Virus record (IMG/VR): IMGVR_UViG_3300045988_146774
Location: 32,001 to 96,000 of that record
DNA from: a virus
Reading direction: 5' to 3' (one strand)
DNA length: 64,000 nucleotides
Position numbers and translations under genes: made by a program. The stretch's first letter is position 1. Every line of letters begins with the position of its first letter. A model generated the notes under the pieces. The model ran no database searches. It had not been told where the DNA came from and saw only the letters and a list, made by a program, of their open reading frames with translations. Shown one piece after another: positions 22,770 through 54,517 of the stretch.

Positions 22770-22869
22770 AATGAATTTTTATTTTGGAAAATAAATATTT
22801 TTATATGAAAAAGATACAGATTTGATAAATAATATAACCAAACAAATAACATGATCAAGAGGTGATGGC

Positions 22870-23055: not shown

Positions 23056-23058
23056 CCA

Positions 23059-23068
23059 CTCTTCTATT
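23059..23068 (+). promoter_or_regulatory. CTCTYCTATT motif copy
   Basis: Exact CTCTTCTATT inside hairpin CCACTC-ttctatt-GAGTGG, 44 nt before the next start. Confidence 0.5.
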
Positions 23069-23111
23069 GAGTGGTATTTTTGTACCAAAATTTAGGAAAG
23101 GAGGTTAAAAA

Positions 23112-36054: not shown

Positions 36055-37983
36055 TTGGCACAAGACGTATTAGATTTTAAAGTCAATATAGAAACAGAGA
36101 ATGCTGCTACTAAAATGGAAACTCTTGGTACTATGTATGACGAAATCAAAAATAAAATGGAGAAAGATAAAATTACTCCACAAATTGATTTATCGAAGGT
36201 CAAATCACAAGTCAAAGAGGTTCAAAATTTATTTTCAAATGCTGGAAAAGGCTCTGGCAAAAAGATAGATCTTTCTAATTTATTTACGGTTGATCCAAAA
36301 TCTTTTGATAAGGCAATGAGTTCTTTCTTCTCAAAAATGGATAAACAAATGAAGAGTCGTGCTTCCAAAGTAAGTAAAGATCAATCTGATCTTGCTAAAT
36401 TAATGGCAGCTGACAAAGCAAGTTCTTATCCGTATGCAGATGAGTTAAATGCCAAGAATCAAAAGCTTCTGAGACAATATTCTCGGCAAAATGTTTCCGG
36501 AGAAGATAGGAAGAATTTAGAGACTGCCATGAATCTTCAAGCACAAGTAGAGACATATCAGAAGCGAATGGCAAAAAGTATTTCGGATAATAATTTAGAA
36601 GCTGCAATTGCCGATTATGATAAATGGGCTTCATCTGTTGAGCAGTTAAATTCCGTATTGTCCATTCTTGGTAATACAATGGAAAAATCATTAGATACTT
36701 CTGCTGTTGATACCGCTATTTCTAAAGTCGAAAAATATAGAGACAGTCTGAAGAATGTTAGTGATGAGCAAAATAAAATGCTTGATAAAGTTACCAATAT
36801 GTACAATCAAGAAGGACTGACTCGAAGTGAAAAAATCAATGCGGACAAAGAGTTTCAGCAAGTTAAAAATGAGATCGCACATCAGAATAAATTAGCTGAA
36901 ATTCAAAGGGAAGCTTATTCTGGTAAATATTCTCTCACTTCTGCTAAGGCAGATACTTTCTTATCCAGATACAATGGACAAAGCTCTGAAGTTTTAAATA
37001 GAGCAAGGGCTGAGTTGGCTGAATATAAGAAAATATCTGAAGAGGTTGTTGCTCTATCTGATAAGAAGATTAAGGGAGAATTAATTGATACTTCCGGACT
37101 TGAAGAAAGTAAAGTTAAATTAGAAGAATGTGGCGAACGAATGAAGAATGTTCTCGAAGAAGTTCGTGTCGCTGAAAGTAAAACTCTTGATCCAAAGATA
37201 GCAACTTCTTCTGCTAACAGCGTTCAGAAGTATATGAATGACAATACAAAAGCTTTAAAGAAATATAAAGCTGAGTTTGAATCTGTCAGAGATATGTATA
37301 AGAACGCCACTACTGTTGGTGAAAAAAATACAGCGGATGTTGAATTTAAAAGATTGAAGTCTGCTGTTTCTGCTGAAGGATTGAATGGAAAAGGCTTATT
37401 CGGAAACTTAAGACAATCTTTTTCACAGTTATCTAAATTCAGCGGTGTTTGGGCTATGGCTCAAGGTGCTGTTGTTGATATTCCGAGACAAATTATGTCT
37501 GCTGTGACAGAAATTAATTCTGCACAGATTGAATTGAGAAAAGTTAGCAGTGCATCTGATAGTCAGTTGTCACAGTATTGGAATCAAGCTGCGGAAAGTG
37601 CCAAAAAATATGGTGCTACTGTTAGTGATGTTATTAGTAGCACTGCGGATTGGTCAAAACAGGGATATGGTCTAGATGATGCTAAGAAACTTTCTGATAT
37701 CACAACCTTGTATCAGAAAGTTGGAGACAATATGACGCAAGAAACTGCTTCGCAGAGTTTGGTTTCTACATTACAAGGTTTTAATATGCAAGCTGATCAA
37801 GCTGAATCTATTGTTGATAAGTCCAATGAGGTGGCAAACAATTATGCAATAGGATCAGATGGTATTGGAGAAGCTTTGCAGAGAAGTGCTGCATCATTTA
37901 ATGCTGCACACACAGATATTTCAAAGTCAATTGCTTTGATTACTGGAACCAATACAACACTTCAAGACCCGCAACGTGTCGGT
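36055..37983 (+). CDS. tape measure protein, exon 1
   Basis: TTG start after TAGGAGGTGA. Coiled-coil N-terminus, then a TP901-type TMP core (...AQIELRKVSS...GSDGIGEALQRSAA...LQDPQRVG). The frame degenerates into junk plus a stop after 37983. Confidence 0.75.
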
Positions 37984-38151
37984 TGTAAACATATTGCCGA
38001 CTATTACAGTAATGTAATAAAAATAAAAGTGGCTATATCGGTTAATGTCCAGAAGTGGACAAGACCGAGGAAAGACTTGTATATTTTCGAAGCATATCAA
38101 TTAGGAAGGGTATGCTTTTATTAATTATAAAATTAAAATTAAGGAGATAAA

Positions 38152-39075
38152 ATGCCAAGAAAAGGTAGTAAAACTGGATATACGATAAAATGTGAAAATT
38201 GTGGAAAAGAAATATATCAAACAAAAACTCAGTACAATAGAGCAAAGCATCATTTTTGTAGTAATAAATGTCAAAAGGATTTTCAACATAGACAACTATA
38301 TGAAAATAGAAAATGTCCGATATGTGGCTCCTTATTTGAAATAAGCAAGAAATCAAAACAAAAATTTTGTTCAACTAAATGTCAGAATGAATGGCAGAAA
38401 ACAAATACTGGTGAAAATAATGTTAGATTTAAAGGTTCTATCTGTAATTGCGATTGGTGTAATAAAAGGATAACAATTGGAAAGTCAAATATGGAAAGAT
38501 TTTCTAATCATTTTTGTTCTAATAAATGTAGACAAGCATGGTACTCAAATATTTATTCACAAAATGATACATGGAAAGAAGAATCTAGAATTCGAGCAGT
38601 TAAACTTTTAGAAGAAAGAAAAATAGATACAAATACAAAACCACAGATTATAATAAATAACTTGCTTGATGAATTGCAAATAAATTATATAAATGAAAAA
38701 AATTTGAAATATTATTCATTAGATAATTATTTAAAAGATAATAATTTGGCAATTGAAGTTATGGGAGATTTTTGGCATACCAATCCAATTGTGTATAATG
38801 AATTCCCATCAAAAGAAATACAAATAAAGAGAATATCAAAAGATAAAGCAAAACATACATATATTAAAAAATATTTTGACTATGAAATTTTATATTTATG
38901 GGAAAGTGATATTTATAAAAACTTGAACGTATGTAAAAAATTAATACAAAAATATATAAAAGAAAATGATCATTTACAAAATTATCATTCTTTCAATTAT
39001 CATATCGAAAATAATAATCTTATTTTAAATTCAAAAATAATTTACCCATATTTTGAAAAAGAATTAGTAGCATAG
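38152..39075 (+). CDS. intron-encoded putative homing endonuclease (3 FCS-type zinc fingers plus PD-(D/E)XK / Vsr-like domain)
   Basis: 307 aa, AAGGAGA SD. Three CxxC...FCSxKC repeats. C-terminus ...LAIEVMGDFWHTNP... resembles Vsr/DUF559-type nucleases. Confidence 0.6.
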   Translation: MPRKGSKTGYTIKCENCGKEIYQTKTQYNRAKHHFCSNKCQKDFQHRQLYENRKCPICGSLFEISKKSKQKFCSTKCQNEWQKTNTGENNVRFKGSICNCDWCNKRITIGKSNMERFSNHFCSNKCRQAWYSNIYSQNDTWKEESRIRAVKLLEERKIDTNTKPQIIINNLLDELQINYINEKNLKYYSLDNYLKDNNLAIEVMGDFWHTNPIVYNEFPSKEIQIKRISKDKAKHTYIKKYFDYEILYLWESDIYKNLNVCKKLIQKYIKENDHLQNYHSFNYHIENNNLILNSKIIYPYFEKELVA

Positions 39076-39170
39076 ACTAATGCCTAATCATTTGGTTATG
39101 TGAAAAAGAAAATATACAAGAATCCGTAACGACTGTAACACTTTATATGGTAACATATAAAGTTTCGCCA

Positions 39171-39180
39171 CTCTCCTATT
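39171..39180 (+). promoter_or_regulatory. CTCTYCTATT motif copy (inside intron 1)
   Basis: Exact CTCTCCTATT. Part of hairpin TCCTAT-taat-ATAGGA between the R-like and S-like elements. Confidence 0.45.
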
Positions 39181-39344
39181 AATATAGGATGAAGATCCAG
39201 TCTGAACTGTCAATAGACACTTCTATGAATTATTTCATAGTCGCCACGCTATAACTTAATGAAACGTGGGAATTAGCCAGAAATGACTAATCGCTATATT
39301 TAATATAGTCAGTACCATCTCACAAATGGGAAAGTAACAGGAAG

Positions 39345-39954
39345 AATATGTGGAAAACGGTTAGCGCAAGATTGCGTGGTTCAGAATCTGAACTTAGTGC
39401 TATGGGTGAAGACACAGATGGTCTTGTAACCTCTACATCTAAGCTTCAGGCAAAAGTCAAAGCACTTACTGGTGGCTTTGACATTATGAAAGATAAAGAT
39501 ACATATAAAGATATCTATGATATTGTAGTTGGAATTGGTGAAGCATTTCCAAAGATGAATGACATAAATCGTGCTAGTTTGCTTGAACTTTTAGCAGGGA
39601 AAAACCAGTCAAATGCCCTCGCAGCAGCACTTCAGAACGTTGATGTGATAAAGAAGGCTTACAACACGGCTGCCAATGAATCAGAAGGATCTGCCGAAAA
39701 AGAATTTGACAATTATAAAAAATCGATCGATTATTCTATTCAAAATTTTAAGGCGCAGTTCCAATCTTTCTCATCATCCTTAGTATCATCTGACTTTGTA
39801 AAAGGAATTGTTGATAGTGGATCATCGGCACTTAATATCATTACGCAACTCATAGATAAAGTAGGCTTATTGAAAACTGCCTTCGCTACATTCGCTGGCG
39901 TAAAACTTTTCAAAAACTTAGATTTGTTTTATCTAAACTGGTCACTTCATACAT
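39345..39954 (+). CDS. tape measure protein, exon 2 (3' boundary uncertain: 39908 or 39954)
   Basis: Continues the TMP core (NMWKTVSARLRGSESEL...LLELLAGKNQSNALAAAL...). Has no SD of its own. Its frame stops at 39954-56, just before a group I core. Confidence 0.7.
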
Positions 39955-40310
39955 AAGAATATAACGAAAATGGTGTTGTAAACAAGTGTGTGTTGTTAAC
40001 GTTTTAAAATTAGGAAGATTAATTGCTGGGAAGCCTAATGCTTAATGAGCTACAACATAGTCGGAAACGGCAAGTGTGAATGCGACGAAAGTAGAAAAAA
40101 TCATTAAGATGACATATGGTGAAATAAAAGGCATCGGGAAGATGCTCCTAAGTGTCTAGTATAAGGGCAAAGGTTATAATAACCGACTAACTGATCAGCA
40201 ACGCACTGTTATAGAGAATATATAGCTGTATAGCAGGACGCTCAGAGACTACCGATCTTCGAAGTCAATATGACCTTACAGTATTGACTTATAATGTATA
40301 GTCCAAGAAA
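39955..40310 (+). ncRNA. group I intron 2 catalytic core (P, Q, R and S elements all present)
   Basis: P AATTGCTGGGAAGCC (40021-35), Q CTGATCAGCAAC (40191-202), R GCTCAGAGACTACC (40240-53, versus consensus GTTCAGAGACTACA), P8 AGTCAATA/TATTGACT, S AATGTATAGTCC (40293-304, versus AAGATATAGTCC). Candidate P1: CATACAT(39948-54) with GTGTGTG(39986-92). Confidence 0.7.
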
Positions 40311-40642
40311 CAATATATGTTTTGTTATTACATATTCAAATAAAATAACACGATGCCTTCTATCCCATCGTTATTGGCAATGGATAGAGAATAAATAACT
40401 ATAAACAATAATGGAGATTAGAAAAATATCTAATCTCCAAAATATAATATCGTGTCTCAGACCAGTCATAGTTTGAGATGCATATATTATAAGATATTTT
40501 CCGATTTCTGTAAATGGATTATGGAGAATATACAATTAGCTTACAGAAAGTGAGTGGCAATCCCCAACGGAGCTTGTGATGGCTCCGAAGGGTTTTCTTA
40601 AAAAGGAGGAAATTAATGGAATGATTCACAAATTCAAGTTAA

Positions 40643-40840
40643 TTATTTATTATGTAGTGTGAACATACTATGTGACATCATTTTAGCAATTGCCTTAGCT
40701 TTTTCATCACTGATGTCATCCTTAAAAGCGATAAGGAAAACAGCAATAATTTTAGAAATCTCATGAAGAGAAACATAAAGCATAAACGGAATCACTAAAT
40801 AGATGTTGTTTAAAAGAATTCCAAAAAATTCTTTCAACAC
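40643..40840 (-). CDS. small hydrophobic protein (cargo island)
   Basis: 65 aa with GGAGGG SD on the minus strand (the TTG at 40837 is the likelier start). Two hydrophobic segments. Lies downstream of the Spo0A-C-like gene. Confidence 0.5.
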   Translation of the reverse strand: MLKEFFGILLNNIYLVIPFMLYVSLHEISKIIAVFLIAFKDDISDEKAKAIAKMMSHSMFTLHNK

Positions 40841-41009
40841 TACCCTCCTTTCTGTAAGATTAATTATCTTATTGGAAAATCAGGCAGAATAGCCCATTAG
40901 ATTTCCATCGTGCCATTGTCTTACACTGGCACTACCACGTAAAGATATGGTTACGAAAATCCGTGGAACTAAGCATATTGTGGTCATATGCTGATTTTGT
41001 AACAAATAC

Positions 41010-41018
41010 ATTATACCA
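41010..41018 (-). promoter_or_regulatory. extended -10 element TGgTATAAT (minus strand)
   Basis: Reverse complement of ATTATACCA, about 170 nt upstream of the 40840 start. Confidence 0.35.
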
Positions 41019-41071
41019 TTTTGTCAAAATTTGGAAATCCAGAACATACATTCAGAAAATAAATTAAACGG

Positions 41072-41410
41072 CTAATTGTATAAATTTCGGATTTTATCTT
41101 TATATGCAAAAGCAAGCGCACCTAGAAATTGTGCATTTGATGGACATTTGTTTGGAATATAACCGAATATTGGTTTTAGAATATCTTTTTGTTCATTAAA
41201 AAGATGTCGCACGACTGTACGAATGTTTGATTCTACGACCATTGTAGATGTATGGAATTTCTTTGCAATGGAAGGATATATGTCTTTTGTGATAAGATAT
41301 ATCTCATCATCTTCCACTTCGTTAATTAATTCAATCGCATATTTGATATATCGGTATCCTTTGTACCTCCGACTTATGCGACAGATGAATAAAAAGTCAT
41401 CAATTTTCAT
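41072..41410 (-). CDS. stand-alone Spo0A C-terminal (DNA-binding) domain protein, no receiver domain
   Basis: About 112 aa from the ATG at 41410 (GAGGTGA SD). KGYRYIKYAIELI...ITKDIYPSIAKKFHTSTMVVESNIRTVVRHLF...FGY...PSNAQFLGALA parallels Spo0A-C (HIKGYLYLREAI...[32 protein letters not shown]...FGYT...PTNSEFIA). Confidence 0.7.
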   Translation of the reverse strand: MKIDDFLFICRISRRYKGYRYIKYAIELINEVEDDEIYLITKDIYPSIAKKFHTSTMVVESNIRTVVRHLFNEQKDILKPIFGYIPNKCPSNAQFLGALAFAYKDKIRNLYN

Positions 41411-41443
41411 ATAAATCACCTCATAAGTAAAAGATGCATTAAT

Positions 41444-41471
41444 AATATACCATATTTAGCATACATTTCAA
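41444..41471 (-). promoter_or_regulatory. sigma-A-type promoter for the Spo0A-C-like gene (TTGAAA, 16 nt spacer, TGgTATATT)
   Basis: Minus strand: -35 TTGAAA (41471-66) and extended -10 TGGTATATT (41452-44). Confidence 0.4.
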
Positions 41472-41514
41472 GATGTGACGTGCTAAGATTGTGTTAAGAT
41501 ATTAGTGTTAAATG

Positions 41515-41521
41515 TGTCGAA
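41515..41521 (+). promoter_or_regulatory. consensus 0A box TGTCGAA
   Basis: Exact match to the Spo0A-box consensus TGNCGAA. It lies in the 390-bp divergent region between the Spo0A-C-like gene and the TA locus. Confidence 0.3.
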
Positions 41522-41591
41522 TGGCAAAAATCACAATAAAACTATTATATTTTTGTGTATTATTTGTGTAGCATTTTCCCCATGGAACGGG

Positions 41592-41597
41592 TATAAT
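41592..41597 (+). promoter_or_regulatory. -10 box TATAAT upstream of the antitoxin-repeat RNA
   Basis: Perfect TATAAT 34 nt before the first RNA repeat. No convincing -35 seen. Confidence 0.35.
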
Positions 41598-41630
41598 ATA
41601 AGCAAGAAAACAAAAGTTTTCTTATATACG

Positions 41631-41752
41631 TTTCACAATGTACGCCAAAGAAACATTGTATTTTGAGACAAACGTACTTCGCAATGTGTACCGAATTACA
41701 TTGTATTTTGAGACAAATTCCTTTCACAATGTAGGACAAAGAAACATTGTAG
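41631..41752 (+). ncRNA. type III antitoxin-like RNA: about 2.6 tandem repeats of 44-47 nt
   Basis: Repeat 1 is 41631-41677, repeat 2 is 41678-41721, and partial repeat 3 starts at 41722. Each has an ACAATGT...ACATTGT hairpin and a shared TATTTTGAGACAAA tail. They sit directly upstream of a terminator and a ToxN-like ORF. Confidence 0.7.
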
Positions 41753-41753
41753 A

Positions 41754-41787
41754 GGAGTGGTTCTGTTTAACAGATCACTCCTTTTTT
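41754..41787 (+). terminator. rho-independent terminator between the RNA repeats and the toxin gene
   Basis: GGAGTG/CACTCC stem followed by T6, as in the toxIN-type architecture. Confidence 0.65.
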
Positions 41788-41803
41788 GATACATAGGAGA
41801 AAA

Positions 41804-42349
41804 ATGAAAGAACATGCTTTATATTTTGGGAAAAATGAGTATTATGAAATAATCAGAAGGAATGGTGGAACATGGAATGATTCAAAGGAAAGACCAATTG
41901 TATGTTTGATGAAATCCATAGAACACGAAAAGTTATATTGGGCTATTCCAGTTGGTAATTATTATCATAGAAATGAAGCTGCACGAGAAAGATTAGAAAA
42001 ATATCTTGGAAAAGATAAAAAGAATATACAATCTTGTTTTTATCATGTTGGAAATACAAATGAAAAATCTATTTTCTTTATAAGTGATGTTATACCTATT
42101 ACTGACAAATATATAGAACGGGAATATTTGAATAAAACAAGAAAGGTTCATGAGATAAAAAATAAAAAATTGTTAAATGAATTGGAGTATAAACTTAGTC
42201 GTATATTATCGTTTGAAAACAATAAACCAAATTATTTCCGTCAACACATTACAGACATTAAAACTTATCTGTTAGAAGAATTGAGACAGGAAGAATTACA
42301 ATCTCAAGAAGAAAACACAGAAGAACAAATCCAAGAATCAGAGCAGTAA
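41804..42349 (+). CDS. type III toxin (ToxN/AbiQ/CptN-like endoribonuclease)
   Basis: 181 aa from the ATG at 41804 (AGGAGA SD). N-terminal pattern Y-x-x-x-EYY...ERPIVCLMKS...LYWAIPVG resembles ToxN/AbiQ (RPY-hydrophobic run...Y(F)APLSS). The genomic context (repeats plus terminator) is diagnostic. Confidence 0.6.
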   Translation: MKEHALYFGKNEYYEIIRRNGGTWNDSKERPIVCLMKSIEHEKLYWAIPVGNYYHRNEAARERLEKYLGKDKKNIQSCFYHVGNTNEKSIFFISDVIPITDKYIEREYLNKTRKVHEIKNKKLLNELEYKLSRILSFENNKPNYFRQHITDIKTYLLEELRQEELQSQEENTEEQIQESEQ

Positions 42350-42365
42350 TCACACTGCTCTTTTA
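42340..42365 (+). terminator. rho-independent terminator
   Basis: AGAGCAG/CTGCTCT stem followed by TTTT, overlapping the toxin stop codon. Confidence 0.6.
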
Positions 42366-42400
42366 TTATGTCAAAAATAAAGAGTAGAGAAAATTTTACC

Positions 42401-42410
42401 CTCTTCTATT
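42401..42410 (+). promoter_or_regulatory. CTCTYCTATT motif copy (inside the cargo island)
   Basis: Exact CTCTTCTATT, 52 nt after the toxin stop. Confidence 0.45.
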
Positions 42411-42443
42411 CTACCACTTATATCCACAATCTTTACATTCAAA

Positions 42444-42720
42444 CTAACTACGTGCTGTTTTACTAAATATTCCAAGCAACCCTACTCCTACTGCTTTTGA
42501 TGCTGCGGAGATACGTTTGATATTTGTAAAATTGCATGTTGGGCAAGTTATTTGTGTGTTTGATTGTTGGCTTGAGGATTGATGTTGGGTGGATGTCGCA
42601 TTCCCTTTTACAGTACTCATTCTGTTTTCGTAGGTTTTTTCTGAAAATTGAAAACCGCCAAATTTATTAGCCAGAATACAGTAATATTACTAAATACAAT
42701 ACAATAGATTTATTTTTCAT
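42444..42720 (-). pseudogene. frameshifted fragment paralogous to the C-terminal half of CDS 43789..44325
   Basis: Minus-strand translation ...KFGGFQFSEKTYENRMSTVKGN...ITCPTCNFTNIKRISAASKAVGVGLLGIFSK... parallels ...KYGGNQFSECAYRH...VTCPYCKSTNTKKISAVSRAGSILGFGLFSK.... An upstream 17-codon ORF (ATG at 42720) is in another frame. Confidence 0.5.
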
Positions 42721-42738
42721 TTTGATATAAATAAAAAA

Positions 42739-42976
42739 AGAATAATACAATAAATAGACTCATCTCAGGTGCTAGACCACCAGGTGCATCAGTGAAATAA
42801 CGCAATTTACTATTATCTAGATGGTAAAGAACGCCAATGCTCACAAACATATTCCAGTCTACCGAAGCGGACTCTCGTATATTCGTGAACGTGTACTGGT
42901 TTCAGCACATTATACGTCATATAGCAATCACCTCCAAGATACACCCTTGAGATGAGCCTGTTTATTGTATTATTCT
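42739..42976. repeat. 29-bp inverted repeats (27/29 match) flanking a 180-bp segment
   Basis: Left arm 42739-42767 (AGAATAATACAATAAATAGACTCATCTCA) and right arm 42948-42976 (TGAGATGAGCCTGTTTATTGTATTATTCT). Confidence 0.6.
42813..42920 (-). CDS. 35-aa micro-ORF with strong SD, enclosed by the inverted repeats
   Basis: GGAGGTG SD 8 nt before the ATG. Peptide MTYNVLKPVHVHEYTRVRFGRLEYVCEHWRSLPSR. Below the ORF-track size cutoff. Confidence 0.35.
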   Translation of the reverse strand: MTYNVLKPVHVHEYTRVRFGRLEYVCEHWRSLPSR

Positions 42977-42984
42977 ATATTATT

Positions 42985-43677
42985 TTATTTGTTTTTATTT
43001 AATAATTTTTCTGCTTTTTCAAGTTCATATTTATTATGTATAGAACTTATTAATGCCTTTAAGAAACTTTTCATTTGCTCTATGTCGTATTCGGGATGTT
43101 TCACCATGTAATGTGTTTCGTCGTTTCCAAGCCACGTGGCTGCATTCGCTAATTTTTGTATAGGTTCAAATTCGATTTTTTGGCAACATTTTTCCAATCG
43201 GCATTCTCCAATAGCTTCTTTGGTTAGATTTTGTTCTTGTTGTAAATAGTCTTTCACAAGAAATTCAAGAGCTTTTCTGTAACCTGTGCCGGCTATTGTA
43301 AGCAAACCTTGTCTTTCACATTCACACGCCTCAGAAAATATTTTTGTAAAATCTGGATATTTGTCTTTAATATCTTGAGGAATTGAACTTTCTTCAATCT
43401 CTTTCGGATATGGATATCTAACATCTTTTTCAACATTTTTCAAACTACTTTTCATGTGATATAGAGATACATAATATTGTTTACAATTTGTACAATACCA
43501 AACTGCAAATAAAAGAGGCTTCTCCTTTTCATTGAAAGATCTAATTAAACATCCGTTTGCATATTCTGGTTTTCCAGACTTATGACATATTGGACATGTT
43601 GGTTCGATTTCTACAGAACTTGAAACTTTCGCATTTTCAATTTGTTTCGAATCAAATAATTTTATATCAACATTCAT
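42985..43677 (-). CDS. zinc-ribbon plus DUF4145-like helical domain protein
   Basis: 230 aa. CPICH...CTNC zinc ribbon. The C-terminal ...FSEACECERQGLLTIAGTGYRKALEFLVKDYL...ATWLGNDETHY... resembles DUF4145. Confidence 0.5.
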   Translation of the reverse strand: MNVDIKLFDSKQIENAKVSSSVEIEPTCPICHKSGKPEYANGCLIRSFNEKEKPLLFAVWYCTNCKQYYVSLYHMKSSLKNVEKDVRYPYPKEIEESSIPQDIKDKYPDFTKIFSEACECERQGLLTIAGTGYRKALEFLVKDYLQQEQNLTKEAIGECRLEKCCQKIEFEPIQKLANAATWLGNDETHYMVKHPEYDIEQMKSFLKALISSIHNKYELEKAEKLLNKNK

Positions 43678-43788
43678 TTATTGTCACATCCATTAACCTT
43701 ATACATAAAATTATATATTAATTGCTTTTTATTGTATATACGGAACTAATGTTTTGGTAATTTTTACCATAATTGATACATAAAGCTG

Positions 43789-44325: not shown

Positions 44326-44360
44326 ATTATTTCCTCCGAACAATCTTATAAATTTATTTA

Positions 44361-44390
44361 AGTATATCATGAATTGTAAAAGTATGCCAA
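44361..44390 (-). promoter_or_regulatory. sigma-A-type promoter (TTGGCA, 18 nt spacer, TATACT) for the minus-strand cargo operon
   Basis: Minus strand: -35 at 44390-85 and -10 at 44366-61. It abuts the start of TMP exon 3. Confidence 0.4.
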
Positions 44391-47300
44391 TAATTTTATA
44401 TTCATTATGCAGTTTAAAGACTTAGGAAGTTTATTTGATAGTTTTGGAGAACTTAATTTTAAACATGCAAGTAAAGCCTCTTCTTTTGCGGATTTGGATG
44501 GAATAGATAAAAACACTATAAAAGGTTTGTTTAAAATAGATAACAATGATATTAGTGATTTTACAATGGCTCAAATTCAGGCAAAAGCAAGTACGATGGG
44601 ACTTACTGAGTCATTAACAGATGAATTAATGGCTATGTCAAAAGACGCTGATTTTACAGCCAAAGCAAAAGTCGGTAAAGTAACTTGGGGGGAAGCACTA
44701 AAAGAAGGTTCAACAAATGCGGATCAAATAGGGAAAGCATTAATGAAATCTTCCGATGTTTCCGATAAAGCAAAGAAAAAATTATCGGAAGTTTATGATA
44801 AATTTGGAAGTGGAAGTCAAGTATATCAAAAACAGATAGAAAATATTATAAATGGTGCAAATGGTTTAGATGATATTTCTGGTAAATTTACAACTCTTGG
44901 GGCTGATGTCCAAAAATCTACTGGAATGTTCGAATCCGCTGGTAATATTATCAAAGGATTCTTTGCATCAATAAAAGGGTATATTCCTATTCTTGCTGTT
45001 GCCGGAACAGCTTTCGCAGCGTTTAAACTTTGGGACTATTCTCAAACTGGATATACTAGAGCTAAAGAGAAAGCAGAAACTTCAGCTTCTACTTTTTCAG
45101 AAGATAAATCTAATCTCCAATCTCTTCAACAAGAACTTGATACAACAAAGAGTAAAATTGAAGAACTCAATGCTACAAAAGAACAGAATGGTGGATTGTC
45201 TCTTACTGATGAAGCGGAGTTATCTAGACTTGAACAAGAAAATGCCCAGTTGGAGCGTAAGGTCGCAATTCAGAAACAGCTCACAGAAATTTCCGCACAG
45301 GCTGCTTCAAGTGACGCTCGAAAAGCTGCCAATACTGCCCAAACATATTGGGATCATCTTAAAGAGAAAAATGGCGGAGGATTTTTTGGAACGCTAAAAT
45401 CTATTCCTGAATATTTTGCTACAAAACGTGAAGAAAAAGATGGAAAAGTTTATCTCACTAAGGAGAAAAATACTTGGGAAAAAGAAAATGGTGGTAAAGG
45501 AAATACCACTCTTGAAAATCAAACAAAAGCCAATATTAAAACGCTCAAAGATTACCAAAGTCAATTAGAAGATATTGAAACTCAACTTGGAAGTTCTGAT
45601 TTGACAAAAGGAGAAAGAAAAAGTCTCCAAAAACAGCAAAAAGAACTTAGTGAAAATATTGCTGATACAAAGCAGACTTTATCTACACAGACAGACCAAC
45701 TTCAGCAGTGGATTGATGCTTCATATGGGGCAGATGGAAAACTTGAGTCTGGAGCATCTAAATATGTAGATAATTGGAATAAAATCATTAACGATGTTAA
45801 CAATACTATCGGGCAAAAGACCAAAACACAAATTGACGCAAGTAATTTAGATACTTACTTCAACTCTTCTTCTGGTTCTGCTATGAAAGAATATTTGGAG
45901 AATATTGTTGAGGAAGGCGGATCTGCTCAAGATGCACTTGACGCATTTAGAGAGTCCGGAATGCGTCTCAAAGATATTGATGTTTCAGAAAATGGATTTC
46001 TTACATATTTTGAAGATGTAAAACGTCAGGCAGAGGAAGCAAAGCAAGCTGCGGAAGATTATTCCGCTTCTGTTTCAGATGTAGAATCTGCAACTGAATC
46101 TGCAAATCAGGACAAAGATTGGTCTACTATCCAAAGTGCTTATAAGGCTGCAAAGGAATCATTGAAAGAAGGCAAAACTGGAACCGATGATTTTCAGACT
46201 ATGGCAAAATTCCTTAACTCCAATGCGGTAAAGAAATATGCAGAGCAAGGCGGTAAATATACTGCTGATGCTTATCAGAAAGCTTTCCAAGAGGCAATGG
46301 GAACAGCCGATAGATGGTTTGGTGATGATGAAGCCACTAGTATGAAGAATTTCGTCAATGACTTCAAAAATAAAGGATTGTGGGATGTCTCTACTGACGC
46401 AATGGGTCTTTGGGATATCAAAACAAACTTTAATACAACTGCTGAAGCTGCTGACAAGTTTGGAATGAGTGTTGAATCCGTAGAAACAATGTTGCATGGT
46501 CTTGAAGCCTATGGATATGACTTTAGTGACATTATGTTTTCTGCTGAAGGTCTTGATGAATATAAGACAGCTCTTGACGGGATTAAATCTACATATGATG
46601 AAATGACGGATGGTGCTGCTAAAGATAGACTTGGATCATTGATTGATAGTTTTGAATCTGAATATGATAAATTCCAAAATGGAGATTTAAAGAATCTTAC
46701 AAAGGATCAGATTGTTAAAATTAAATTTGAGTATGATTTATCTCAAGTTGAGCAAAAAACTCAAGAGTTGATTGATCAAGCTGCAAACAGTGGCTCTAAT
46801 AATGATTTAGCCGGAGCAATAGTTTCTCAGAAAAAAGAGCGTGATTTATTAGAGGGACGGACGAAATATACAAAAGATTCTGATGAAGGGTATTCATATT
46901 CTTATGATCAGATTGATAAGCTCCAACAAAAAATGACTGGCGCAACAAAGACAGAACGAGCAGAGATTAATAAGCAAATTCTTGCATATCAAGAAATGCA
47001 AAATAATTTTCAGAAATACAGACTTGATGGTGGAGATTTAAATTGGAATGATTATTTGGATACTCCTTCTGCTACCGCTGCTTTTGATGAGATTATTAAA
47101 AAAGGTCTTATGACAAAAGACCAACTCAAAGATTTGTTTGGAGAAAAAGCAACTTATGAGATTGATGCAAAGCTCAACGACGATAATCTCCAAAGCAAAT
47201 TAAAGAAGCTTAAATCTGGTGAAAGCATTACTTTTAAAGCAGATGTTGGCGATATTGAGACTGATGTAGAGGCTGTAAAAAATGAAGACGGTACGGTAAC

Positions 47301-50300
47301 ATACACAGCAAATATTGGTGGAGTCCCAAAAGAAGTAAATAAAATTGCCGACGCTGAAGGCAAGATTCATTATACTGCTGATTTTGATGGTTCGAAGGAA
47401 TGGCTTGAGAACAATCTTAAAAAAGAAGAAACAATTACATTCAAAGCTGACGTTGCTGGGGTTACACAAGATATCCAAGCTTATAAAGACGAAGACGGTA
47501 CAATTCATTATTATAGTGTTTTAGACAATGGAACACGCAAAGAACTAGAACAACATAAAAATGAAGACGGTACAATTACCTATACTACTACTGCTGACAC
47601 TTCTGGTGTGGAAAAAGCGACCAAGAAAGCTAAGGAAAATGCTGAAAAGAATAAAATCGAATTAGAGATTACTGCAAAAGATACCAATCTTGTAGATAAA
47701 TATATACAAGAAAAACAGAAAAGTGACGCAGCGAAATCAAAACTATCAGATTCTGAAGCTGTACATGGTAATGTAGATAGTCGTGATCGTCCAATGATTT
47801 ATTGGGACAAAGAAAACCTTAAATCTAATAAATCTGCTCTTAAGAGTTGGGGGCAGAATCCAAAGGATTTAAAAGGATCTTATTCTACTGTCATGGGCGG
47901 AAGTGATGAATTTCAAGGTGTAGAAATTGCATATACTCCTGTGCTGAAGACTGGTGATGGAAAAGGTGAAGTTATCAGCAAAAACACAATGAGTAAGTAT
48001 ATTAACACTCTCATTGATCAAGCAAAATCCGCTGGTGACGGAAATTGGACTACTGAAGATTTATTAAAATTAGATTCTGAAGGTTTATTAGTCGACGGGA
48101 AGAAAATTTCTAATATGATTGCAGATGTTGGTGACACTGCCAAAGAAACCGGCGAAAAGATGCATGATATAGATGATTCTCTTTATTCCGAAGAATATGC
48201 AAAATACTGGGATGAAATTTCTGAAAAGGCTGAAAAGGCTAATATGTCCGTCGAGGATTATGTCAATACAGTTGCTTCTACTAGCGTAACATCAGATAAT
48301 CTTGTAACAAAAGATAATGGATTTGATAAAGTTGTTGAAAACGCAAAGAATGCTGTCGAGACATTAAAAGGGCTTGGTAATGAGAATCTTAAGTTAGATT
48401 TTGATTTTAAAACTACTAATCTTACAGATATAGAAAATCAAATTCAGCAAGCAAAGAGTAATCTTGATCAGTTTAAGAATGATGACGGTACTGTTAATAT
48501 GTCAATCAATGGAGCACAAGAAGCAGTTACAATTCTTGAGACATTGATTCAGCAAAAACAGCAAGCCTCTAATCCTGTAATAATGGAAGTAAGCACAAGT
48601 GGACTTGATTCCGGAGTATCTGGTGCGGTTTCAAAATTAAAGGAGTATCAAAATGCCTTAAACCAGCTTAATACTCTTAATGAATTAAAAACTGCCGGGG
48701 TACAAATTGATGATTCTCAAATATCTGATGCCGAGGATAAAGTAAATGGCTTATTTGATGAAATTCAGAAAGCTTCTGAAAAAGGTCAATTTAAAATAAA
48801 TGCCGATGTTTCTGTAGATTCATCTTCACAAGAAAAGCTACAGTCAGACCTTAAAAACATGACTCCGGAGATTAAAGCAAAAATTACTGCGGATGATTCT
48901 GACACAAAGAAAGATGGCAAGACTACTGAAGCAAAAGTAAATTACAAAAAAGGATCACAAGAAAAACCAAGTCCTAAAAATGCCAAAGTTAATTACAAAA
49001 AAGGTTCTCAGGCAAAGCCTAGTCCAAAGAACGCAAAAGTTAACTATAAAAAGGGTAGCCAGGCTAAACCAAGTCCTAAAAATGCCAAAGTTAATTACAA
49101 AAAAGGTTCTCAGGCAAAGCCGACATCTCCTAAAACAGCAACAGTTAACTATAAACTTGGTACAGTTGCAAAACCACCTGCTGTAACAGTTAAAGTTAAT
49201 TACGATACTTCTGGTGCACCTAAAGTTCTTGGAACAGCGCATGTAAAAGGATCTACTGGTGGTTTATATCCTATTCCACAATTATCAAGACGTGCACTGG
49301 CAAGCGGAACATTGTCTGATTCCTCATGGTTGAAAGATAGATGGAAAACGAAAGACTCTGAAATGGCTTTGGTTGGGGAGGTCGGACAGGAACTTGTAGT
49401 TTCTGGAAACAGATGGTACACCGTCGGTGATAATGGTGCGGAATTTGCTCATATTCCTGCCAAATCAATCGTATTCAATTCTAAGCAGACTGAAGAGCTG
49501 TTGAAAAAAGGGTTTACTAATTCTAGAGGCAAAGGCAATATATCATTACCTGGAACAGAAGCATTTGCATCTGGTACTGCTTACAGGTTAGGCAGCGGAG
49601 CCTCTTCTACTACAAATGCTAAGAAAAAAACTTCGTCTGGAACCAAATCCTACGGAACTTCAAAAGCGAAATCAAGCTCTGGTTCAAACACAAAATCCAA
49701 TTCCAATTCAAATCCTGATTCATCTGAATCAGCAGAAAAATCTGAAGAATTATTAGATTGGATTGAAACTCTGCTTTCAAGGACTTCTAGATTGACAGAG
49801 TTAGCCACAAGTGCTGTTGATCGTGCGGTCGGATTGGCTAATAAGCAGAATGCACTTGTAGATGCGGTTACAAAAACTCAGAATGAAATCACTACAAACC
49901 AAAATGCAGCGAATAAATATTTTGCTCAAGCAAATTCTCTTGGTCTTGCTCAAGGATATGTCGACAAGATTAAAAATGGTACTCTTGATATTGAATCAAT
50001 TACTGATGATAATCTTAAAGATAAAATCTCTAAGTACAAAGATTACTATGAGAAAGGCTTGTCTGCTCAAGATAAAGTCCTCGACCTTCAAGACAAACTT
50101 AATGAACTCTACCAGAAACGATTGGAAATCATAGAAAAAGAATATGATACTATCGTTGAGGTAAACGATTCATTAAAGGATATGCTTGATGCTAAAATTA
50201 GTTACAACTCTGCTTATGGCGTAGCAAATGACAATCAAGATAATATAGATAGTATCAATAAGTCTATCAAAGCACAAGAAGATACTATCAATCAGCTTAC

Positions 50301-51287
50301 TAAAAAGCTTGATGCATATCAGAAGGAAGTTAATTCTCAGATTACTTCCGGGACATTGAAGAAAGGTTCTGAAGATTATAGGTCTGCACAGAAAAATCTT
50401 AATGATTTTACGGCAAATATTTATAAAGCATCACAAGAACTTATCGAGTTACGGGATAAACTTGTACAGTTAAGAGCTGATGCAATTCAGACGATTATTG
50501 ATACGTTCAAAAGACGTTCTGATAAATTGGATAAGTATACTTCTCTTCTTGAAGCTAAAGATGAAACTGTACCAGAATCAGTATATCAGGAAAGACTGGA
50601 TAACAACAATGACACAATTCGTAAGAACCAAGAAGCCAGAGCCATTTGGCTAAAACGACAAGCAACCGAAGATGTAAATTCGGACAACTATAAGAAATAT
50701 GCTGAGGAAATCCAGAAACTTGATGAATCCACTCTTGACCTTATGAAAGACAACGAAGATTTAAAGAACTCTATCTATTCTCTCAGAATCAAAAATCTGG
50801 AAGATGCCATCAAAGGTTATGATGATTTGGAAACTGAGTTAAAAGGATTCAGAGATCTTTTAAATGACGATGCTTTCTTAGATAAAAAGGGTGGAATCAC
50901 AGATGAAGGATTGGCTCAGATTACTCTTCTCTCTCAGAGTATCGGAAATGCAAAACAGAAAATTTCTGACCTCACAACCGGACTTCAGAAAGTAAAAGAA
51001 CTTTATGATAATGGTGTTATCTCACTTAAAGAATATAACGAAAAATCTGCGGAATATCGCAAAGAACTTCAGTCTTCTACAAGTGATGTAAAATCTTATC
51101 AGAAGAGTTTGACTGATTTATATCAGAATGCTTTGAAAACAGAAGTGGATGCACTTCAAAAAGTCATAGATAAAAGAAAGTCGGCACAGACCGCCCTTGC
51201 TTCATATTACGATTTTCAAAAAAAAGTTACATCTCAAACAAATGATGTAAACAGCTTAAAAGCTCAAATTGCAGCACTCGAAGGGGT
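44387..51287 (+). CDS. tape measure protein, exon 3 (5' boundary uncertain: in-frame acceptor candidates after G44386, G44412 or G44419)
   Basis: A 2301-aa ORF with no SD before its first ATG (44407). TM segments, long coiled coils, EDGT(I/V)xY modules, 17-aa tandem repeats and the LVGEVGQELV motif. The frame degenerates after 51287. Confidence 0.75.
48931..49230 (+). repeat. in-frame 51-nt (17-aa) tandem repeats AKVNYKKGSQ(A/E)KPSPKN, 4 copies plus 2 degenerate
   Basis: Read directly from the protein (KVNYKKGSQEKPSPKNAKVNYKKGSQAKPSPKNAKVNYKKGSQAKPSPKNAKVNYKKGSQAKPTSPKTATVNYKLGTVAKPPAVTVKVNY) and from the nucleotide sequence. Confidence 0.85.
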
Positions 51288-52989
51288 AACATTATTTGCC
51301 CTATTTGTTTAATTGCTGGAACGCCCTTAGAGCTACATATACTACAACGAATACATGAAATAAGGTAAATCGTGAATGTTAAAAAATATGTAGATTGGGT
51401 AATCAGCAGCGAAATTCCGAACAGGAATACGTTCAACGACTAGGTAGGATGAGTGTACTACCGTAGGATCGCAAGCGATTGGCGATTCGAAAAATACAAA
51501 CTGTTTATTAATTAAATATAGAATTCATAAATCACGTTGAGATATACGTGATTTTTTAGTGTGCGAATTTATTTAAAGAGAATAAAAGAAATGGAGGTGA
51601 AATATGCTAGTACCTAATCAAAAAGTTGAGGTATGCTGGAATAATACAACAAAAAAACATTATATGGAATTGGGATATGAATTTACAAAAATCAGAGATA
51701 AATTTCTTGTAAATGTTGAAGATTTAACACCTCATTCCGGAGAACAAATAAGCGTAATTTGTGATTACTGTGGCAATCAAAAAATGACAACATTCAATGA
51801 TTATAATTGTTCTATTAAAAAATATCCATATAAATATTCTTGTTCAGAATGCATCCCAGTAAAACAAAAAGAAATTAGAGGAAATAAATATAAAGGAAAA
51901 TATTTTAACGTATTTGTCAATAAATGTATTGAGAATAATTGTGTTCCAATTTCAACTATTGATGATTATCAAAATGCATATTCTAAGCTATATTTTATTT
52001 GTAGTAAACACGGACAACAATGTATAACTTATAATAGCATTAAGGCTGGGTCTTGGTGTATAGAATGTGGACATGATAAAGGGGCAAAAAAGATTGCAAC
52101 GCCAATAGATAAAGTAATTAAAATAGTTGAATCAAAAAATAATAATAAAATTATTAATCCAGAAGAGTACATAAATTTTAGCACTTCTAATCTTCTTATT
52201 AGATATGGATGCTGTGGAAAAGTTTCAACTACTTCATTGAACTCGTTAGAGAATAGTGATGGTCTATGCTATGATTGTGGACAAAAGAAAGCAAAAGAAC
52301 ATATAAAATTATCTATGGAAGAAGTAACAAAACGGATAAATTCTGTTAACAATAATAAATTGTTAAATCCAAGTGAATATATTGACAATTCTACAATTAA
52401 TTTAAAGATATTATGTGGAGAATGTAATAAAAATATTTTTATAACAAGCTTGGCTAATTATGAATATAATCAAAAAATACGTTGTGGAACATGTTCTCAG
52501 AGGATAAGCGTCCCGGAAAGAACAACACGAAATATTTTAGAAAAATATGATATAAAGTATCTTCCAGAATACAAATTCAAAGATTGTAAAGACAAAAGAC
52601 CACTGCCATTTGATTTTTATCTTCCAGAATATAATATTTTAATAGAATTAGATGGGGAGCATCACTATCATCCTAAATGGGGTGATGAGCAGTTGAAATA
52701 TATTCAAAATCATGATAAAATGAAAAACGAATATTGCGAAAATAATAATATCACTTTAATTCGAATTCCATTTTGGGAGTTTGATAATCTTGAAAAAATT
52801 CTTATAGAAAAACTTAATCTTCCACAAATCGTGGACATAGAATTATCCAATGGTCGAATTTTTAAATACAAAGCACACAAACCAAAAGAATAATTAATAA
52901 ATAGAAGATATAGTCTAATCTCATATGAAAGTATGAGGAGAGTTATACTACTCTCTCACTTATGTAGCGAATAAGTGAAAAGATAAATG
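51288..52989 (+). mobile_element. group I intron 3 (with endonuclease ORF in the P8 region)
   Basis: P1: exon GGGGT(51283-87) pairs with GCCCT(51298-302). P AATTGCTGGAACGCC (51311-25), Q AATCAGCAGC (51401-10), R GTTCAACGACTAGG (51431-44), S AAGATATAGTC (52905-15), P7 GACTA/TAGTC. Ends in G52989. Joining gives ...AALEG-V-NDAATLAKKK in frame. Confidence 0.8.
51604..52893 (+). CDS. intron-encoded putative homing endonuclease (four zinc-ribbon repeats plus PD-(D/E)XK / Vsr-like domain)
   Basis: 429 aa, GGAGGTG SD. Repeated CxxC...CxxC units. C-terminus ...SVPERTTRNILEKYDIKY...FDFYLPEYNILIELDGEHHY... resembles DUF559/Vsr-type nucleases. Confidence 0.6.
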   Translation: MLVPNQKVEVCWNNTTKKHYMELGYEFTKIRDKFLVNVEDLTPHSGEQISVICDYCGNQKMTTFNDYNCSIKKYPYKYSCSECIPVKQKEIRGNKYKGKYFNVFVNKCIENNCVPISTIDDYQNAYSKLYFICSKHGQQCITYNSIKAGSWCIECGHDKGAKKIATPIDKVIKIVESKNNNKIINPEEYINFSTSNLLIRYGCCGKVSTTSLNSLENSDGLCYDCGQKKAKEHIKLSMEEVTKRINSVNNNKLLNPSEYIDNSTINLKILCGECNKNIFITSLANYEYNQKIRCGTCSQRISVPERTTRNILEKYDIKYLPEYKFKDCKDKRPLPFDFYLPEYNILIELDGEHHYHPKWGDEQLKYIQNHDKMKNEYCENNNITLIRIPFWEFDNLEKILIEKLNLPQIVDIELSNGRIFKYKAHKPKE

Positions 52990-54517
52990 AAATGATGCTG
53001 CAACACTTGCAAAGAAAAAGAAGTTAGAACAACAGCTTAAAGATGCACAGGAAACACTCGATGATACTAAGCGTGACCATCGTAATGACCTCATCTCCAA
53101 AGGTTACGACAAGATATCTGATGACCTCAATCAGATGCTCGAAGATACCGAATATGAAATCTCACACAATGCTGATAAGCAGAATGAAATCATCCAGAGT
53201 ATGCTTAATAAGCAAGTTGGAATGTATCAGGAAGCCTACAGCAAAATCAATTCTATCATCAAGAACACTGGTTGGGTTGGAAGCAATGACTTCAATAACA
53301 ATCAGTCTCAGATGTCATCTCAGACAGGTGCACAGAATCAAGCGTCTAACGCATCTCAATCTCAGCAGACAGCAAACAGCAAACCATCTAGTTCTGCATC
53401 CGGCACAGATACAAGCGGAATCAAAGATAATTCTTCAGAGAACAATAAGATAACTGAAAATATTATGAAGCCTGAAAATACAACAAACAGACCTGTTGCA
53501 GAGCTTAAAGTATCCAAGTCATCAGTATCTATTGAAGAAGGAAAGTCTACTTCTGTTACTACGAAAATCAGACCGAATGATGCTGCCAATAAGAAATTAT
53601 CTTGGAAGTCAAGTAATACTGCTATTGCTACAGTATCAAATGGAACGATTAGTGGTAAGAAGCCGGGTTCATGTCAGGTAACAGTATCTACCACTGATGG
53701 ATCTGGAATTTCTAAGACTATTGCTGTTACCGTTACAAAGAAGCCAGATCCTCCGAAACCAGCACAGAGCAACACAAATAAATCTGGTGGAGATGGAGTA
53801 CCTAGAGTTGGTGATGTTGTAACATTTAATGGAAAATATTACTACGATTCTTGGGGAAAAAGACCTGCCGGAAGTTTATATTCTGGTGTCAAGAATGGTG
53901 TTGTAATTGATAGCTATTCTAGCAGAGAATATGGCGGAAGTGCTAGATATACAGGAGATCTTAAAGTTCATATCAAATCTAGGGATGGAAGATATGGAGA
54001 TTTGGGATGGGTAAGATTAAGTCAGATTAGCGGATATGCGAAAGGTACTCCGGGAGTTGACAGAGATCAAATTGCCATTGTGGATGAAGAAGGTCGTGAA
54101 CTTCAGATTCCTAATGGTAAAGGTGGAAGAATCACAAAGCTTGAAAAAGGCACTGGTGTAATTCCACATACTGCAACCGAAAAACTCATGGCTCTTTCTG
54201 AACAGCTTGATAACAATGGAAACATGGTTATTAATGGTAGAACGATTGAAGAGTATGTTAATGATATGGCTAATATGCAGAGTATTGCTGTGCCAGATTT
54301 CAGTGATGTTACTGCTTCTGTCGTTAGTCAGTTAGAAGGCAAAGGTATGGGTAATGTGACGGTTGAGAATCATTATGATTCGTTGTTGACTGTAGAGGGT
54401 AATGTTGACAAAGATGCATTGCCTGGATTAGAAGATATTCTTAAGAGATCGTATGAATACACGTCTAAGCAGATGGTCAAAGAACTTCGAAAAGGCGGTA
54501 TGCAGATTCGGAGATAA
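52990..54517 (+). CDS. tape measure protein, exon 4 (Big_2-like Ig domain and C-terminal region)
   Basis: The frame is open from 52991 with no SD or ATG until 53135. Contains VSKSSVSIEEGKSTSVTTKIRPNDAANKKLSWKSSNTAIATVS...GSCQVTVST (Big_2-like). Confidence 0.75.

Follow-up and report, generated by a model that had tools for sequence, protein, structure and literature searches.

We have analysed a stretch of 64,000 nucleotides (nt) of viral DNA (positions 32,001-96,000 of the IMG/VR record IMGVR_UViG_3300045988_146774), which we call the window and whose own numbering is used for the coordinates below; L and P numbers designate related loci and proteins, respectively. Between 36055 and 54517 its plus strand carries four long open reading frames (ORFs) with three inserts between them. 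We believe, with a probability of a little over 70%, that these ORFs are the four exons of one tail tape measure protein (TMP) gene of an SPbeta-like phage of gut Firmicutes, and that the inserts are three group I introns, the middle one of which would enclose an island of unrelated genes.

The tape measure gene and its uninterrupted relatives

The first exon (36055-37983, 643 codons) starts at a TTG codon, with the Shine-Dalgarno (SD) sequence AGGAGGTGA standing 7 nt before it, and matches positions 2-122 only of the PhageMin_Tail domain (PF10145); the remainder of this domain and a hydrophobic segment are found in exon 2 (39345-39923, 193 codons). Exon 3 (44410-51287; 6,878 nt), with no SD upstream, aligns collinearly with uninterrupted TMPs in their C-terminal parts, and exon 4 (52990-54517, coding to 54514) adds 508 codons, the stop and a Big_2 domain. 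Put together (36055-37983, 39345-39923, 44410-51287 and 52990-54514), they amount to exactly 3,637 codons, and over these 10.9 kb of sequence all exons are intact, with zero frameshifts. When 37983 is joined to 39345, PF10145 becomes whole, running in one stretch from position 2 to 200/201 and scoring 59.3 bits against 48.3 unjoined. An initial annotation of this DNA, made from the sequence alone, had foreseen that removal of the first insert would restore the conserved core of the TMP; positions 2-200 of the domain are indeed regained, and intron-free homologues agree to the residue. The spliced product also matches PHROG TMP families and, in the close relative L003 (91-96% nucleotide identity), the TMP is accompanied by YomU/YomW-type tail genes. 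By its PhageMin_Tail domain, its PHROG matches, collinearity and synteny, the predicted product would be a phage tail tape measure protein.

Its computed length, 3,637 amino acids (aa), falls within the range of about 3,630-3,660 aa given by the initial annotation. The same source considered a TMP of this length unusual, which is not so in the clade: it is a normal size here, since relatives have uninterrupted TMP ORFs of 4,216 and 4,230 aa. It was also right in describing four plus-strand TMP ORFs but not in stating that only the first of them has a start codon, as there are in-frame ATGs at 39348, 44407 and 53135. That only the first has an SD stands for exon 1, which has one, and for exon 3, which has none, while an AGGAAG before 39348 is mildly SD-like. 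By homology, however, exons 2 and 4 begin upstream of the ATGs at 39348 and 53135.

The continuity of the exons was examined in 80 related IMG/VR loci retrieved with an exon-2 profile. In about 57 of them there are zero extra bases at junction 1, and in about 28 an insert of 1.3-2.3 kb lies at the junction or close by; the end of exon 1 coincides with the end of homology to about 57 intron-free relatives. Annotated TMPs of GenBank phages (tblastn), for example that of Brevibacillus phage Sundance, also span junction 1 in one piece without any indel, and protein-database homologues read ...LQDP(D/E)KVGNMW(K/R)TVSARLRGSE..., i.e., the very junction initially predicted. Seven distant relatives (L045, L048, L063, L069, L072, L075 and L077) have uninterrupted TMPs that align in single high-scoring segment pairs over positions 643, 836 and 3129 of the spliced protein; further on they follow exons 3 and 4 collinearly. 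Alignments with uninterrupted TMPs are gap-free at junctions 1 and 3 and weaker at junction 2. Junction 3 is spanned by the proteins P0121, P0124 and P0152, as well as by those of L069, L072, L077 and L045; in P0152 the sequence ...ALSGVNNES... aligns with ...ALEG-V-NDAA..., split valine codon included, and the frame-keeping ...ALEG-V-NDAATLAKKK that had been proposed for the third intron is in this way matched by intron-free homologues. L003 lacks the window's introns 1 and 3, and its exons 3 and 4 form one ORF of 2,792 aa. The more distant L001 lacks intron 3, and there the equivalent ORF has 2,722 aa. Intron-free alleles of introns 1 and 3 do exist, and exact removal of the two inserts restores the reading frame. 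A megablast search of the whole region against GenBank phages found no close relative.

Other interruptions are found along the same gene in relatives. The closest GenBank relative, L001 (MT835469.1), has introns a few codons past junction 1 and inside its equivalent of exon 2 (20613-22271 and 22500-24585), both containing a relative of the endonuclease gene of the window's intron 3. The window has no intron at the latter site, and the P1 and P10 pairings of these two introns were not resolvable. In Thomasclavelia phage TR-TP1 (L009, PQ571309) the region 4674-11190 is annotated as TMP, HNH endonuclease, TMP and HNH endonuclease, with a sequence 76% identical to the core of the window's intron 2 in the first gap; it is probably an intron-split TMP annotated as separate genes. 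Exon 3 of the window contains, at ca. 48930-49200, four to five copies of the tandem peptide repeat KVNYKKGSQ(E/A)KPSPKNA, which appear as self-similar blastn matches. Upstream of the tail module there are three tRNA genes (10438-10510, 18006-18088 and 18093-18182), of which two have long variable arms.

Introns 1 and 3 and their endonuclease genes

All pairs of U/G splice sites whose P1 and P10 strands are adjacent were scanned without bias, and for introns 1 and 3 the sites of the initial annotation came out as the single best solution (13 bp vs. 9-11 for the next best). Intron 1 (37984-39344, plus strand; 1,361 nt) has a P1 of 6 bp between the exon end GUCGGU (37978-83) and the guide GCCGAC (37996-38001), with U·G at the 5' splice site, and directly 5' of the P1 strand a P10 of 7 bp (ACAUAUU/AAUAUGU; intron strand 37989-95). 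It ends in G (39344). Of the core, P4/P5 lie at 38037-38069, an R-like element at 39125-35 and an S-like one at 39302-12, and a 13-bp P6 stem (38076-88 with 39108-20) encloses a nuclease ORF; P3-P6 and the R- and S-like elements are all present, but less canonical than in intron 3. With the ORF deleted, the minimum free energy (MFE) of the folded RNA has a z of -6.6. A blastn search of this RNA against GenBank phages gave no relatives, while L023, L064 and other loci have homologues of intron 1 at this TMP site.

Intron 3 (51288-52989, plus strand; 1,702 nt) is IA2-like. Its P1 consists of 5 bp, GGGGU (51283-87) with the guide GCCCU (51298-302), again with U·G, and its P10 of 8 bp (CAUUAUUU/AAAUGAUG; intron strand 51290-97) lies directly 5' of the P1 strand, the terminal G being at 52989. 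The elements P (51311-25), Q (51401-10), R (51431-44) and S (52905-15) are near consensus. An 11-bp P8 stem (51504-14 with 52891-901) stands around the nuclease ORF and is accompanied by P9, P9.1 and P9.2 hairpins. The MFE fold of the ORF-deleted RNA recovers P1, P4-P6, P7, P7.1, P7.2, P8 and P9-P9.2 (z = -6.75). This intron is 80% identical over 107 nt to intron 2 of the nrdE gene of phage Twort, which contains I-TwoI, and 71% identical to a Pseudomonas phage intron annotated as Intron_gpI. The coordinates first proposed for both introns, their guide pairings (GTCGGT/GCCGAC and GGGGT/GCCCT), the terminal G of intron 1 and the P, Q, R and S elements of intron 3 hold exactly. Judged by P1 with its U·G, P10, the terminal G and the core, introns 1 and 3 are ordinary mobile phage group I introns. 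Inteins and group II introns were dismissed, as the inserts are out of frame, full of stops and devoid of a reverse transcriptase.

The ORF looped out of P6 in intron 1 (38152-39075, plus strand; 307 aa) is homing-endonuclease-like, with zinc-ribbon repeats, treble-clef matches and a nuclease-like C-terminus. It matches phrog_1271 (8e-13) and the PADLOC 'homing endonuclease' profile (4e-5), has an SD of its own (AAGGAG) and is marked by a fall in GC content to 19-28%. The one in the P8 loop of intron 3 (51604-52893, plus strand; 429 aa) is a predicted homing endonuclease with matches to phrog_559 (4e-49), phrog_9084, also a 'homing endonuclease' (2e-29), and PADLOC CxxC_PD-DEXK (2.5e-5), and its own SD is GGAGGTGA. 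A Pfam scan of the two ORFs found no nuclease domain at threshold. From their position in a loop, their own start signals and their PHROG families, both would be intron-encoded homing endonucleases.

The candidate intron 2 and its cargo island

For the second insert the initial annotation had noted a P, Q, R and S core at 40021-40304, which stands exactly (P 40021-35, Q 40193-202, R 40240-53, S 40293-304), but it gave no boundaries; we place them at 39923/39924 and 44409/44410, and what they delimit is not a compact intron. The candidate intron 2 (39924-44409, plus strand) would have 4,486 nt, with the core at its 5' end followed by the cargo island and a terminal G at 44409. The predicted ribozyme core (39934-40345, guide 39934-43) would be complete within the first ca. 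420 nt and has its helices in the canonical order: P3 GAAGAUU/GAUCUUC (40014-20 with 40254-60), P4 UUGCUGG/UCAGCAA, a P5 extension, P6, P7 GACUA/UAGUC, P8 of 10 bp (40262-71 with 40281-90) and then the P9 hairpin. Its P3-P5 part is 74% identical to an nrd intron of Brochothrix phage A9, which is scored by the Rfam model RF00028. The 3' boundary of exon 2 was set by homology, at the end of the motif KN[LIV][GDS] in relatives, together with the P1 and P10 pairings, and the combination of 39923 (...KNLD) with 44409, homologous to the sites of the relatives, is the only in-frame solution. P10 pairs UAAACUG (39934-40) with CAGUUUA (44410-16) over 7 bp. L003 keeps the 16 nt that surround the 3' splice site and contain the P10 target, while its exon diverges downstream, and the TAA that ends the second ORF is CAA there, i.e., the stop after the 5' splice site is not conserved.

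Two other placements were discarded. The splice pair 39862/44426 (10 + 7 bp), first favoured by a naive P1/P10 scan, would cut out the conserved hydrophobic segment, L003 does not conserve its P10 despite having the same guide region, and decoy windows score alike. An intron ending soon after the core, with a short 3' exon, was dropped on the evidence of the relatives, in which the 3' splice site falls where the downstream TMP part starts.

The order of upstream TMP part (A), ribozyme core, variable island and downstream TMP part (B) is found in L003-L006, L001, L010-L012 and about 40 IMG/VR loci, the gap between A and B ranging from 0.9 to 9 kb over some 44 loci, and it recurs in many independent contigs of 90-200 kb. 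In L003-L006 the core is 97-98% identical while the adjoining cargo is replaced. Lineages differ in the sequences of P1 and P10 at the KN[LIV][GDS] site and nevertheless keep the pairing, with P1 of 3-7 bp and P10 of 6-14 bp. Thus, L010 has CUGAGU/GCUCAG as P1 and UGUGCAAG/CUUGCACA as P10 (8 bp), L040 has CUGGGU/GCUCAG and UGUGUAAG/CUUGCACA (8 bp), and L021 has the compensatory CUGAAU/GUUCAG with a P10 of 6 bp. P1 is GUCGGU/GCCGAC in L024 (P10 of 9 bp), of 7 bp in L050 (P10 of 10 bp) and of 6 bp in L047 (P10 of 6 bp). The shortest ones are GGGU/GCCC (4 bp) in L086 and L092, where the P10 of 11 bp is unique; GGU/GCC (3 bp) in L029, L033, L036 and L049, with a P10 of 12-14 bp that is the sole such match in 20 kb; and GAU/GUC in L064, with a P10 of 9 bp in an intron of only 890 nt. 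A G always precedes B. The codon before B is TAG (followed by CUU) in L042, ACG in L021, L036, L049 and L050, and CAG in L040, and B therefore has no start codon in these lineages; an SD before it is absent in the window as well as in the relatives.

As MAFFT misaligned the cores of different phages beyond P5, helices were compared by anchored search instead. Within families the alignments contain compensatory changes in P1, the P1 extension, P6, P7 and P9-type hairpins, with few broken pairs. P7 covaries between families, being GAACA/UGUUC in L064 vs. GACUA/UAGUC in the window, and it does so in L036 too. The P1 with U·G, the P10 and the terminal G expected of a group I intron can be recognized in intron 2, in the window as in the relatives. 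Sequences similar to the cores of the window's introns 2 and 3 are also present inside the B-part of L047 (19416-19694) and L032 (19900-20178), and these lineages would therefore carry additional TMP introns at sites that are empty in the window.

The cargo starts with a small ORF on the minus strand (40643-40840, 65 aa) at its edge; the 540 nt that contain it (40501-41042) are missing in L003 between flanks of 94-95% identity, a small indel just 3' of the core. It is followed by the gene of a Spo0A_C-like DNA-binding protein (41072-41419, minus strand; 115 aa; PF08769, 1e-20), present also in L003. On the plus strand, a 45-nt sequence repeated 2.7 times in tandem (41631-41751) is matched by the Rfam motif Fusobacteriales-1 (RF02920, 73.5 bits). 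A hairpin with a T-run comes directly after the array, and then the gene of a predicted CptN-like type III toxin (41804-42349, plus strand), with another terminator-like hairpin behind it (42340-42361). The toxin assignment comes from a match to NF047359 (9.6e-17) of 61 bits, under the curated cut-off of 90. Because the order of repeat, terminator and toxin fits a toxin-antitoxin locus of type III (41624-42361), the Fusobacteriales-1 motif is probably a CptI antitoxin RNA. The CptI of Eubacterium rectale likewise has a 45-nt repeat, and the likeness to the CptIN systems lies in the 45-nt tandem repeats, the terminator and the CptN-like toxin gene that comes next; they differ in that the toxin found here scores 61 vs. 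90 bits for the cut-off and in that the locus is inside a phage intron (PMC3401426, PMC4627078).

The remaining cargo genes are all antisense to the TMP. A truncated zinc-ribbon remnant (42444-42620, minus strand) is a second copy of the antisense double zinc-ribbon gene (43789-44325, minus strand) whose start abuts the 3' splice site, and between them lies the gene of a DUF4145/phrog_1305 protein (42985-43677, minus strand; 230 aa), similar cargo being found in L020, L021 and L027. The double zinc-ribbon protein has a conserved C-terminal motif (CPxCGS..KIS..FGLxS..C.NCGYKW), and a homologue search with it gave nothing informative. Most lineages have its gene next to the 3' splice site, the 890-nt intron of L064 included (11031-11351, minus strand), and the gene is shared by lineages whose ribozyme cores blastn cannot align. 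Other cargo in the relatives includes GmrSD_N (13 loci), DUF3800, DUF2513, PemK, a trypsin-like peptidase and ANT/Bro antirepressors. We lean, with rather less confidence than for the split gene itself, towards the view that this TMP intron site is, in a large clade of SPbeta-like gut phages and prophages, a safe harbour for exchangeable multi-gene islands of 3-9 kb devoted to defence or competition (type III toxin-antitoxin, GmrSD-like, PemK, DUF3800, DUF4145, antirepressors), with a zinc-ribbon gene by the 3' splice site and the exons joined in cis or in trans; it would be the first intron with multi-gene cargo known from a virus or bacterium.

The proposed splicing, its alternatives and known introns

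If the gene works as we propose, a long late transcript would be made in which the guide of each ribozyme would pair with the last bases of the upstream exon (P1, with U·G) and the first ones of the downstream exon (P10), and each intron would excise itself, ending in G. The ligated message of 10.9 kb would be translated into the TMP of 3,637 aa (ca. 400 kDa), which would hold the junction peptides VGNMWK, NLDQFK and AQIAALEGVNDAATLAK; unspliced, there would be chains ending in ...KNLDLFYLNWSLHT and beginning with MQFKDLG.... Introns 1 and 3 would carry their homing-endonuclease genes, each translated from its own SD, inside the P6 and P8 stem-loops, whereas intron 2 would be a tolerated cargo site in an essential structural gene, with island genes that may be exchangeable and independently expressed, several of them antisense. 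We consider splicing in cis from a long late transcript the most likely course for intron 2, because its guide, P10 target and terminal G are conserved and covarying.

A number of observations weigh against this reading. As the initial annotation had suggested, we searched for the introns with the Rfam model Intron_gpI (RF00028), and there was no match to any of the three in the window at the gathering score or at E ≤ 10, nor to a 521-nt slice of the intron-2 core, nor in seven relatives. In a control, the model finds the ORF-less Pa_WF01 intron (82.5 bits) but misses both experimentally validated nrdE introns of Twort, and it gives those of the A9 nrd genes 39 bits (E = 3e-7), below the gathering score. 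Since validated introns escape it, its sensitivity for introns such as these is low, and we take the negative result as weak evidence and not as a refutation. The remaining objections concern intron 2. The alignment across junction 2 passes through hydrophobic sequence of low similarity, the core is no more stable than shuffled sequence (z = -1.0), and the P1 of the window, GAU/GUC with U·G, has only 3 exon base pairs. Exon 3 follows an ATG by chance, so that separate translation would be possible in this phage. From P9 to the 3' splice site there are about 4.06 kb and at least five genes, unlike in a compact ribozyme, and the plus-strand terminator-like hairpin at 42340-42361 and genes of the opposite strand stand between the core and that site. 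We found no significant long-range pairing by which the 3' splice site could be brought up to the core. One candidate, in which the loop UUAUUGGC(A) of 40369-77 would pair with the complementary GCCAAUAA of 44387-94, is kept in L003 but was discarded, as 61 of 200 nulls drawn from the cargo match as well, and other families have no comparable helix. In metagenome and viral contigs we found junction 2 neither in spliced nor in intron-free form; a search for the exact joined sequence gave two chance matches in unrelated genes of metagenome contigs and none in viral contigs.

Several of these observations would be accounted for if introns 1 and 3 spliced and the middle insert did not, leaving A (846 aa, up to the TAA at 39954) and B (from the ATG at 44407) as separate polypeptides, the core as a relic or with some other role, and the cargo as intergenic. 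Besides that ATG, the weak P1, the missing RF00028 match and the terminator-like hairpin inside the island, this explanation can draw on a sigma-70-like TTGTAA-17-TATATT just upstream of B and on gene callers everywhere making A and B separate genes. Yet there is no relative with an SD before B, and the start codon of B is missing in several lineages, where the G before it is always kept. The P10 of 9-14 bp that the guide region forms with the beginning of B is unique in 20-kb loci, P1 and P10 have undergone compensatory changes, and the core is 97-98% conserved beside replaced cargo. A and B together are, moreover, collinear with single TMPs elsewhere, and we regard two separate polypeptides as unlikely. 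The idea that nothing is spliced at all can be given hardly any credence: there would be four separate polypeptides, split by mobile nuclease genes and an island, or a dead gene in a decaying prophage. Free-standing homing endonucleases split some T4-like genes and would provide a model, nuclease genes do lie inside interruptions 1 and 3, and the ORFs have chance ATGs and no covariance-model match. However, exons 2 and 4 reach upstream of their ATGs and have no proper starts, a high degree of structure, with canonical P1, P10 and P-Q-R-S elements, marks the non-coding flanks, and the exons have remained free of frameshifts over 10.9 kb in an architecture that is the same in many independent contigs of 90-200 kb.

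Another possibility, which we find quite improbable, is trans-splicing of intron 2: because the cargo blocks a continuous transcript, there would be one RNA for exon 2 plus the core and another for exon 3 preceded by a short 3' tail of the intron, and the two would come together through base pairing. We know of no trans-splicing group I intron in phages, which counts against it. The plus-strand terminator-like site and the convergent genes inside the intron, as well as the promoter-like site near exon 3, would suit such a scheme. With the latter, however, transcripts would begin at the exon itself; exon 3 is preceded by a non-coding tail of only ca. 80 nt, shared with the start region of the antisense gene, and beyond P10 there is no significant complementarity of the tail with the core region. 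A precedent of sorts is the ND5-717 intron of hexacoral mitochondria, which is processed from a small permuted transcript and not from the full-length one (PMC6545197).

Cis-splicing of three introns is our preferred reading, and it can be set beside what is known of phage introns. The T4 introns of td, nrdB and sunY have one ORF on the same strand and about 1 kb in total, with the endonuclease ORF looped from P6 or placed 3' of the core. The former position is that of the ORF in our intron 1 and the latter that of the cargo of intron 2, which differs in having at least five genes, on both strands, in 4.5 kb. In Twort, according to Landthaler and Shub, orf142 reportedly holds three self-splicing introns. 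The nrdE introns of the same phage (AF485080) include the endonuclease-bearing counterpart of our intron 3 mentioned above, but they lie in a different host gene, and in our case splicing is something that we infer. The endonuclease differs too, as that of the window has zinc ribbons and a PD-(D/E)XK-like domain and is not, by Pfam, an I-TwoI-like HNH enzyme.

The nearest parallel to the gene as a whole are the TMP genes of prophages of the Bacillus cereus group, with group I introns at three sites (TMP-IVS1, IVS2 and IVS3; Tourasse and Kolsto, 2008, PMC2504315). These introns are also of IA1/IA2 type, in frame, at several sites of one TMP gene and present or absent between strains. Different introns are likewise fitted to one site via P1 and P10, there is a stop soon after the 5' splice site, and endonuclease genes lie in peripheral loops. 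Theirs, however, are compact, with at most one endonuclease gene and without multi-gene islands or antisense genes, and the hosts are lambda01-like prophages of Bacillus vs. SPbeta-like gut phages here (PMC2504315). The initial annotation therefore overstated its case in calling three introns in one phage structural gene unusual, and our introns 1 and 3 are of an already known type, since these TMP introns (PMC2504315) and the three-intron gene of Twort precede them.

The interest lies in the cargo-bearing intron 2 and its wide distribution. In the literature that we searched, a group I intron enclosing several unrelated genes was found only in hexacoral mitochondria, and a search for phage introns with cargo, morons or defence genes gave nothing comparable. 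The ND5-717 intron, of 18-19 kb, has several core mitochondrial genes in P8 and is removed by back-splicing (PMC6545197). Like the window's intron 2, it is a multi-kb group I intron around several unrelated and independently functional genes, in which distant splice sites must meet, but in the window the cargo is 3' of P7'/P9 and not in P8, and it consists of variable accessory genes and not of core mitochondrial ones. Intron 2 thus resembles the ND5-717 type in carrying several genes without being a member of it, and a multi-gene cargo intron in a phage appears to be new.

Annotations of these abundant gut phages routinely break the TMP up into two to five genes, interspersed with 'HNH endonucleases', and recognizing the introns gives the true TMP and hence the expected length of the tail. 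Related prophages are present in contigs of Blautia, Dorea and Ruminococcus, so that the idea is testable if such strains can be cultured and their prophages induced. If intron 2 splices, an essential structural gene can tolerate kilobases of foreign genes on both strands, and one has to ask how, from 4-9 kb away, a group I core can reach its 3' splice site. It would also link ribozyme introns with the hotspots of accessory and defence genes in phages, and provide a mechanism by which such a hotspot may exist inside a gene.

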